Assembly (NCBI GenBank): GCA_965200875.1
Contig: OZ241456.1
Span: 256,001-320,000, forward strand
DNA length: 64,000 nucleotides
DNA from: Bdellovibrionales bacterium
GTDB taxonomy: Bacteria > Bdellovibrionota > Bdellovibrionia > Bdellovibrionales > UBA1609
Reading direction: 5' to 3'
Under the pieces are notes generated by a model. That model saw only the letters and a program-made list of their open reading frames with translations, was not told the origin of the DNA and searched no databases. The position numbers were made by a program, and so were the translations under genes. Below, piece by piece: positions 30,179 through 30,793 of this stretch; within the stretch, counting starts at the first letter, position 1; each line of letters begins with the position of its first letter.

Positions 30179-30200
30179 GAATCAGTTGGTCCTGAATAAG

Positions 30201-30728
30201 AAGATATGGATGACCAACCTTTCCTGGGGCTGGTTACCCTAATATGTGAAGTTATCCTTCTTATAAGGTATAAGGAGGGTTAATAAAACTTTTAACATAA
30301 AGGAGGTCATCCAATGAAAAAGAACATACTCCATGTCGGGCTTGATGTCGATGATAAAGCCTTTCATGGCACAGCTTTTTACTCAAAAACAGGGGAAATA
30401 TTTGAATTTTCCTGCCGACCCAATAATGCCTGTTTGCTGAAAAAACTGCAAACTCTCCAAAAAAAGGGCTTTAAACTCCATACTTGCTATGAAGCCACAT
30501 ACATCGGATACAGCCTGCACCGCTTTTTAATGAGTAAAGGCATTCAAAATAGCATCATTGCTCCATCTTTGATCCCAAAAAACCCAGGAAAATGTGTTAA
30601 AACTGATCGCATAGACAGTAAAAATCTGGCCATTTATTTCTCCAAAGAACTTCTTACAGCCATATGTGTACCAGACAAGAGTGATGAAGAGGTCCGGGAT
30701 GTTATCCGTTCCAGAAGCTTTTTAGTTC
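30201..30728 (+). mobile_element. Truncated IS110-family element (left end + N-terminal half of recombinase gene)
   Basis: Structured 113-nt leader plus DEDD-domain ORF, flanked by the two halves of element A. Confidence 0.75.
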
Positions 30729-30793
30729 GTTTAGTGGACAAGTACTTTTTCACAGACACATTTTGCAAGAAAACAATCAATTATAGACTTTGA
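30314..30793 (+). pseudogene. IS110-family recombinase, C-terminally truncated
   Basis: VGLDV, CYEAT..G, VKTDRIDS RuvC-like DEDD residues; only 159 aa; last ~20 aa read through non-IS repeat DNA. Confidence 0.88.
30729..30776 (+). repeat. Dispersed element A, internal part
   Basis: GTTTAGTGGACAAGT = 22351-22365; TTTTGCAAGAAAACAA = 59403-59418. Confidence 0.7.

Follow-up and report, generated by a model that had tools for sequence, protein, structure and literature searches.

An IS1111-type remnant in the terminal repeat of an IS5-family MITE and a predicted guide that probably aims at IS5 outer junctions

Introduction

Why does one half of a transposase gene lie inside a short dispersed repeat, and was its element directed to that place? 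This question is raised by a locus at about 30 kb of the window, which is the whole 64,000-nt stretch of bacterial DNA analysed here (G000:C1:256001-320000, where G000 denotes the 1.87-Mb host genome). IS621, an IS110-family element, targets REPs. In a preliminary description of the window, it was proposed that an IS110-type insertion sequence (IS) had entered a REP-type dispersed repeat, called element A, directly after the string CTGAATAAG, that it targets this very site by means of an RNA, and that the 3' half of the IS was deleted later. The reading favoured here, with a probability of roughly 0.7, is that the locus holds the remnant of an IS1111-type element in the repeat of an IS5-family MITE, that the guide of this element aims at the outer junction of IS5 elements, and that the window copy landed off its guide and later lost 938 nt.

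Results

The remnant and its joints

All three strings on which the description was based were located where it had placed them, with CTGAATAAG at 30192-30200, GTTTAGTGGACAAGT at 30729-30743 and the uninterrupted form, CTGAGTAAG-TCT-GTTTAGTGGACAAGT, at 22339-22365. At 30 kb, the stretch from CTGAATAAG to GTTTAGTGGACAAGT is filled by the IS leader and by the first 139 codons of an IS110-family transposase, a fragment that matches Pfam PF01548 (DEDD_Tnp_IS110) with 31.8 bits against a cut-off of 29. The 15-mer GTTTAGTGGACAAGT has exactly four occurrences in the 1.87-Mb genome, and both copies outside the window lie within fragments of element A, so the arrangement is not due to chance. The search for full-length copies that had been suggested returned two, both outside the window (copies A and B, Table 1). 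They start at the same AG after other flanks (TTTATA and TTCATT). It follows that CTGAATA, which precedes AG in the window, is flanking DNA and that AG is a shared core; CTGAATAAG is not the end of the IS itself, as only AG is held in common.

The locus was correctly recognised as an IS110-type insertion within a dispersed repeat, since a remnant of this superfamily does lie inside element A. The outer AG of the left repeat of element A is found at 30184-30185, and the last two bases of the same repeat form the AG core taken by the IS. The window fragment is the DEDD half alone of an IS110-superfamily transposase: its open reading frame retains the RuvC/DEDD domain with D11, E60, D98 and D101 and is without the C-terminal domain that carries the YSSG serine motif. 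Relative to the full copies 938 nt are gone, which bears out the later loss of the 3' half. Left without a guide RNA, a right end and a serine domain, the remnant is predicted to be dead.

The uninterrupted repeat at 22.3 kb had been regarded as an empty site. It is a 40-bp stump of a paralogous repeat and not a pre-insertion allele of the locus. No empty allele was found in the four of seven sequencing runs compared over 29600-31400 (runs X3 and X5 have no coverage of the flanks and X4 consists of scraps only). Short-read contigs of run X2, from the same sample as the best match, span both joints without differences, with an IS-side overlap of only 27 and 30 letters against a bar of 31, and they argue weakly against an assembly artefact.

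Table 1. Coordinates of the features discussed (window positions unless a contig position is given)
Feature	Position	Strand	Remarks
Left-end stump of element A, uninterrupted; paralog, not allele	22329..22367	+	
tRNA gene	29499-29571		
PADLOC PDC-M50A-like gene	29648-30178	+	E 3e-28
Left terminal inverted repeat of element A, 16 bp, IS5-family type	30185..30200	+	Repeat form taken from full IS5 copies in relatives
First 532 nt of the 1,465-nt IS1111-type element	30199..30730	+	Identity 100% to copy C1:1795048-, 99.4% to C1:1686978+
AG core dinucleotide, left junction of the IS	30199..30200	+	First and last bases common to both full copies and 16 relatives whose end could be read
13-bp sub-terminal inverted repeat on the left, set 7 nt from the end	30206..30218	+	In full copies, partner is found 3 nt inside the right end
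Truncated transposase ORF: residues 1-139, then 20 codons of element A and flank	30314..30793	+	
Deletion joint	30724..30730	+	Internal AGTTCGT fused to right flank
Rest of element A, short variant without central palindrome	30729..30776	+	Like C1:598013-598173
PDC-M50B/ThsB TIR gene	30795-31304	-	E 2e-36; in-frame stop at codon 20
Second ThsB-like TIR gene	31316-31690		
Element A fragment, left half	44089..44214	-	nhmmer E 2e-20; holds inverted repeats I1 and I2
Near-complete element A with central palindromic module	59241..59458	+	nhmmer E 2e-73 (this copy helped to build the model)
Full copy A of the IS	C1:1795048	-	1,465 nt, AG to AG
Full copy B of the IS	C1:1686978	+	1,465 nt, AG to AG

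An element of the IS1111 type

The full copies encode a 369-aa transposase that is recognised by NF033542 (165 bits; cut-off 140). Its motifs GLD, YEA, DRID and YSSG include both the DEDD RuvC domain and the C-terminal serine motif of the IS110 superfamily. The ends carry a perfect 13-bp sub-terminal repeat, which is separated from the left end by 7 nt, counting the core, and from the right core by 3 nt. Non-coding DNA amounts to 115 nt on the left and about 240 nt on the right, 3' of the transposase, and this 3' region folds at z = -4.6. Within it, the complement of the top strand comes first and the match to the bottom strand second, which is the guide order of IS1111. Sub-terminal inverted repeats of 11-13 bp with extensions of 7 nt on the left and 3 nt on the right are named as marks of the IS1111 group in an extract of PMC11187229, and marks matching those found here are also given in an extract of PMC11208160. 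By the sequence marks tested, namely, end repeats, extensions, the 3' non-coding region and guide order, the element is of the IS1111 type.

No close full-length relative of the IS was found among 40 related genomes; the transposases of the relatives recovered are 43-64% identical. Rfam holds no family for the 3' region, the single match having E 0.61, far below threshold, and runs X6 and X4 yielded nothing for this region. Two internally deleted mini copies of an IS1111-type element with both ends kept were observed in the related genomes, namely, L083 (G009, 212 bp) and L085 (G022, 49 bp). A 64%-identical relative with a different guide is present in G041 as L021 and L057. The right ends of both copies abut CATGTTTAAAATAA, possibly the end of another element, and L021 bears a duplicated right-end stub.

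Element A as an IS5-family MITE

Element A has a length of about 277 bp and terminal inverted repeats. A profile search of G000 gave 70 matches over 7,950 bp, 10 of them near full length, which is 3.1% of the non-coding DNA of this genome. The right ~100 nt of element A match the left end of a G000 element that carries an IS5-family transposase; its truncated gene is recognised by NF033578 (282.6 bits; cut-off 275). Full IS5 copies in G009 and G005 bear the same inverted repeat as element A together with exact 6-bp duplications. For these reasons, element A is, by its sequence, an IS5-family MITE. It shares with the IS5 (NF033578) elements of the genus a 15-16-bp repeat and the ~100-nt end, and possibly the 6-bp TANNTA duplication; at the far end, only the repeat itself is common to element A and IS5 right ends. 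Upstream of 126 IS5-type ends, the consensus is TANNT followed by A (T 92, A 91 and T 98 of 126). The target-site duplication of element A agrees at 6/6 bases at C1:712390-712666 (by eye), at 5/6 at C1:824913 and at 3/6 at two other two-ended copies. In the wider repeat family, 5 of 25 inverted end pairs have a duplication agreement of at least 5/6. The G000 IS5 is recovered by both PF05598 and NF033578, and a search of G000 with PF13751 gave no match.

The assignment to REP-type repeats, which are short palindromes lacking ends of the transposon type, was not borne out, as a unit of ~277 bp with IS5 ends is REP-like only in its central module. Compared with other IS5-family MITEs and solo ends, long variants of element A add this internal palindromic module. 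The module (~63 nt, window 59300-59362) is also an abundant stand-alone repeat in 8 of the 14 further genomes of the genus, G001, G003, G011 and G014 among them, and is partly arrayed, with spacings of 213 and 300 nt. By the strict pattern, G000 holds at least 114 non-coding IS5-type ends versus one truncated IS5 transposase (C1:171337 onward). Five inverted pairs of IS5-type ends, 55-335 bp, have near-perfect 6-bp duplications in this genome.

A predicted guide RNA that covaries with the flanks

The consensus fold of the 3' region of 17 elements places a hairpin between two variable segments, and compensatory changes are seen in 6 of its 13 pairs. Reverse-complementing the first variable segment gives the right flank, and the left flank with AG added is identical to the second. 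On the right side, contiguous pairs over 12 relatives total 33 against a shuffled mean of 9.6, a value reached by 1 of 20,000 shuffles, and on the left side, contiguous matches over 13 relatives total 43 against a mean of 15.5, reached by none of 20,000. When one element per cluster is retained, the observed values are reached by 8 (right) and 1 (left) of 20,000 shuffles; the test is not blind, because the guide positions were first picked by eye in the same set. Four elements (L023, L035, L037 and L040) are in the wrong hairpin register and L024 is one base off. They were retained as scored, which lowers the total. L021 was scored with the flank of its sister copy L057, and the flank beyond the duplicated stub of L021 is identical.

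Changes of guide and flank can also be followed in single elements. Run X3 contains a 98%-identical element with 8 substitutions in 252 nt, of which 4 fall inside the 7-nt guide; the altered guide predicts TTAC, which is the flank observed. The flanks of X3 fall in the central module of element A, with an agreement by eye of 19 of 24 bases on the right. From the guide GACATA of G022, TATGT is expected, and this is present at 5 of 11 right ends examined (from 19 matches), while 3 of the 11 right flanks are unrelated to the guide. Covariation with the right end is also seen in a further loop, which reads ATAAAAG in four relatives whose right end has the same letters, as expected of a donor loop.

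We infer that an RNA is made from the 3' region and used in targeting. RNA-guided targeting, which had been put forward earlier, is the likely mechanism. The DEDD recombinase would bind this predicted bridge or seek RNA. Guide GGCCUGA would then pair with the 7 bases that follow the AG core on its right side, and guide CUGUUU would read the bases left of it. The target loop of the element studied here predicts the target CTGTTT-AG-TCAGGCC.

Junctions of the lineage at IS5 tips

The predicted target resembles the junction of duplication and repeat at IS5 ends, TANNT-AG-TCGG, in which the duplication ends with A and the repeat begins with G. The guide fits this tip with 6 contiguous pairs including one wobble (TCGGGC) or with 6 Watson-Crick pairs and one bulged U (TCGGCC). 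Both guides together may in this way fit the first bases of the IS5 repeat (TCGG..) and the consensus of the duplication (TANNT).

Fourteen right junctions could be read, with sites recorded under several locus ids counted once: the window copy (W), copies A, B and D and two old stumps in G000, four in G009, one in G005, one in G006 (doubtful), and those of runs X3 and X5. The tip of an IS5 repeat is the site of 5 of the 14 under the strict pattern and of 7 when one mismatch is allowed (X5 and G005 were judged by eye). In the background, which was taken from G000 only, the two patterns account for 114 (1.5%) and 221 (2.8%) of 7,809 non-coding AGT sites. Junctions are in excess at IS5 tips, with binomial probabilities of 1e-6 (strict) and 4e-8 (one mismatch). 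Three weak right-end look-alikes, which are not at tips, were excluded; their inclusion would give 5 and 7 of 17. The near-identical element of X5 sits exactly at a tip. Its right flank and an element A end have 29 of 32 bases in common (by eye), and, provided that the two flanks come from one copy, 5 of 6 bases of its left flank match the left guide. Both IS ends have survived in L083, where TAAAT-AG stands to the left and an IS5 inverted repeat to the right. The lineage thus inserts repeatedly at one base of the repeat of another element, which is the habit of IS4321-like elements.

Most tip junctions are solo right-end stumps without a guide. No old or foreign tip junction except X5 retains its guide, so guide and target at a tip are seen together only once. 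The abundance of stumps would also suit the opposite order of events, in which IS5-type elements inserted at the right end of the IS1111-type element and adjacency tells nothing of its targeting. Two observations make this order extremely improbable. In L083, the two IS ends split an intact junction of duplication and repeat, which fixes the order of insertion, and ATAGGA, the six IS-end bases before the shared G, does not fit the IS5 consensus TANNTA derived from 126 ends. The IS5 tip is probably the programmed target of this element.

Where the recent copies landed

Recent copies do not follow this pattern. Tips are occupied by none of the four recent copies in G000. Copy A lies in unique DNA and copy B within a different palindromic repeat of at least 10 copies. 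The family of this palindrome, AGTCCC-N8-GGGAATC (C1:1688441-1688465 and at least 10 other places), is often found inside short MITEs with IS5-type ends. Copy D (C1:683958-684173) is a 3' fragment with a unique right flank that starts TCTGTTT. It was considered as an RNA-only mini element inserted in frame, for which the ssr9 module of ISPpu9 provided a comparison (extract of PMC12288879). This possibility was rejected, as a paralog shows that the left side is a 6-nt microhomology deletion joint, and for this reason only the right flank of copy D was counted.

The description in its strict form, with the site after CTGAATAAG in element A as the programmed target of the IS, is largely refuted. 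The window copy is located there, the right flank of copy D starts TCTGTTT as in element A, and element A has a perfect left-guide match, CTGTTT-AG, 9 nt further on. Against these stand the other 13 junctions, none of which is at this site, and both full copies, which lie outside element A, one of them in unique DNA and the other in a different repeat. The site itself scores only 5.5 of 13 against the guide. WW-AG-TCY is all that the four recent copies have in common, and of the 320 non-coding WWAGTCY sites in G000, 14 fall in element A. The chance that one of four insertions would land there is about 16%, and the true value is somewhat higher, because the mask misses short stumps. The window copy alone is consequently not evidence of targeting, and programming for this exact site appears very improbable. 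What stands of the claim that element A is targeted through an RNA is the match between the guide and the outer tip of its IS5 repeat, 15 nt to the left of the window site, and it is at such tips that older and related copies are found; the strict window site does not stand.

The guide-pairing scores of W, A and B are 5-5.5 of 13, values equalled by 20-30% of non-coding AG sites; copy D was not scored, as it offers a right flank only. Sites in G000 with scores of 9-9.5 are unoccupied, among them two tips of repeats and, within element A, five CTGTTT-AG sites, and none of the 22 sites scoring 10 or more is a strict repeat tip. As recent copies match the guide poorly, the window copy is likely an off-guide landing, 15 nt from the tip. 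The fidelity of targeting would then be loose.

Such data could also mean that the element is nearly promiscuous, requiring the core plus 2 bases and an AT-rich left side, that the tip junctions come from ancestors or cousins with other guides, and that the likeness of the guide is a relic or chance. We regard this as unlikely. It is favoured by the poverty of what the four recent copies share while better sites stay unoccupied, and by the 3 of 11 G022 right flanks that are unrelated to the guide; some IS1111/IS110 members are reported to have poorly conserved targets (extract of PMC11187229). It is opposed by the near-identical X5 element exactly at a tip with its 5/6 left-guide match (if both flanks are one copy), by the X3 guide change that tracks the X3 flank, and by guides that predict flanks across the clade. 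A programmed IS5 tip with off-guide recent copies is preferred. A more detailed scheme, itself rather unlikely, can be offered tentatively. In it, the two guides would encode the repeat of another transposon and its degenerate duplication consensus (UGUUU reads TAYYT by wobble), so that the junction of host and IS5 is recognised; four substitutions would retarget the 98%-identical cousin to the palindromic module, and the latest burst would be of low fidelity (core plus two bases).

How the 938 nt were lost

The deletion took the serine domain, the whole guide-RNA region and the right end. The joint falls at an internal AGTTCGT (nt 526-532), and this string lines up with AG-TCY-GT of the right junction that was lost. 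Across the joint, agreement extends to 6 or 7 of 7 bases, according to which triplet was lost, or to 5 of 7 if it was TCT. The second truncated copy, copy D, also has a 6-nt microhomology joint. The deletion probably arose by short homology.

It is somewhat unlikely that the recombinase itself, and not replication slippage, made the deletion by using the internal CTTTTT-AG-TTCGTC as a false target. At 8.5 of 13, this string ranks in the top 0.5% of non-coding AG sites and outscores the places where the IS really inserted; the register of its AG is also that of the lost right junction. A crossover at AG would demand that the lost flank read TTC, a triplet present in 1 of 11 aligned uninterrupted copies, whereas a crossover within CGT would require nothing special. 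The plain microhomology deletion of copy D speaks against an action of the recombinase.

Discussion

Partridge and Hall reportedly showed in 2003 that IS4321 and IS5075, members of the IS1111 group, target the inverted repeats of Tn21. The element described here resembles them in being of the IS1111 type, with sub-terminal repeats, and in inserting into the terminal inverted repeats of another transposon family. It differs in that the host ends belong to the IS5 family (IS and MITE) and that the site it favours spans the target duplication and lies at the outermost repeat base. A further difference is that recent copies here are mostly off target, whereas nearly all copies of an IS4321-like element would be expected at the site.

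The seekRNA elements ISEc11, ISKpn4 and ISPa11, as portrayed in an extract of PMC11187229, have a similar 3' non-coding region and 7/3-nt extensions. In the same extract, the IS1111 seekRNA elements also place the complement of the top strand before the match to the bottom strand, and the natural reprogramming of ISEc11/ISXne4, where a change of guide moves the target, parallels what is seen here. Our element differs from ISEc11, ISKpn4 and ISPa11 in its target and in its transposase, which belongs to a distant clade, and its guide RNA is a prediction. Its transposase is related to that of IS621 (PDB 8WT6) with phmmer E 3.9e-6, and the main target here is not a REP, unlike that of IS621. According to an extract of PMC11208160, IS621 combines DEDD and serine parts in its recombinase, has target and donor loops, and uses a core (CT on the other strand) equivalent to the AG found here. 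The guide RNA of IS621 is placed in the left end in that extract, whereas the predicted RNA here lies in the right end.

An IS1111 element that targets IS5 ends was named in no title or abstract of the literature searched, which covers few subscription papers. The RNA-guided mechanism and the habit of targeting the ends of other elements are both already known, and since IS1111-type elements that target transposon ends have been described (IS4321/IS5075), this is an ordinary further example. It adds a natural IS1111-type case aimed at IS5 ends, in which a change of guide is visible between 98%-identical elements. The set of on-target and off-target sites could show the minimum pairing that the recombinase needs, which bears on the fidelity of bridge recombinase tools.

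Neighbourhood and other repeats

The MITE and the IS lie between the convergent 3' ends of two genes, the PDC-M50A-like gene and the first TIR gene (Table 1). Together with the second ThsB-like gene, they have the look of a defence islet in decay, placed immediately downstream of the tRNA gene. Elsewhere in the window, a 33-nt tandem repeat lies within an open reading frame (44265-44527), and 246-nt repeats are found near the window end (63245-63940). A family of 14-mers centred on GCCTGTGCGGCAGT has 39 occurrences in G000, and their near-identical counts suggest a CRISPR-like array or a tandem repeat.
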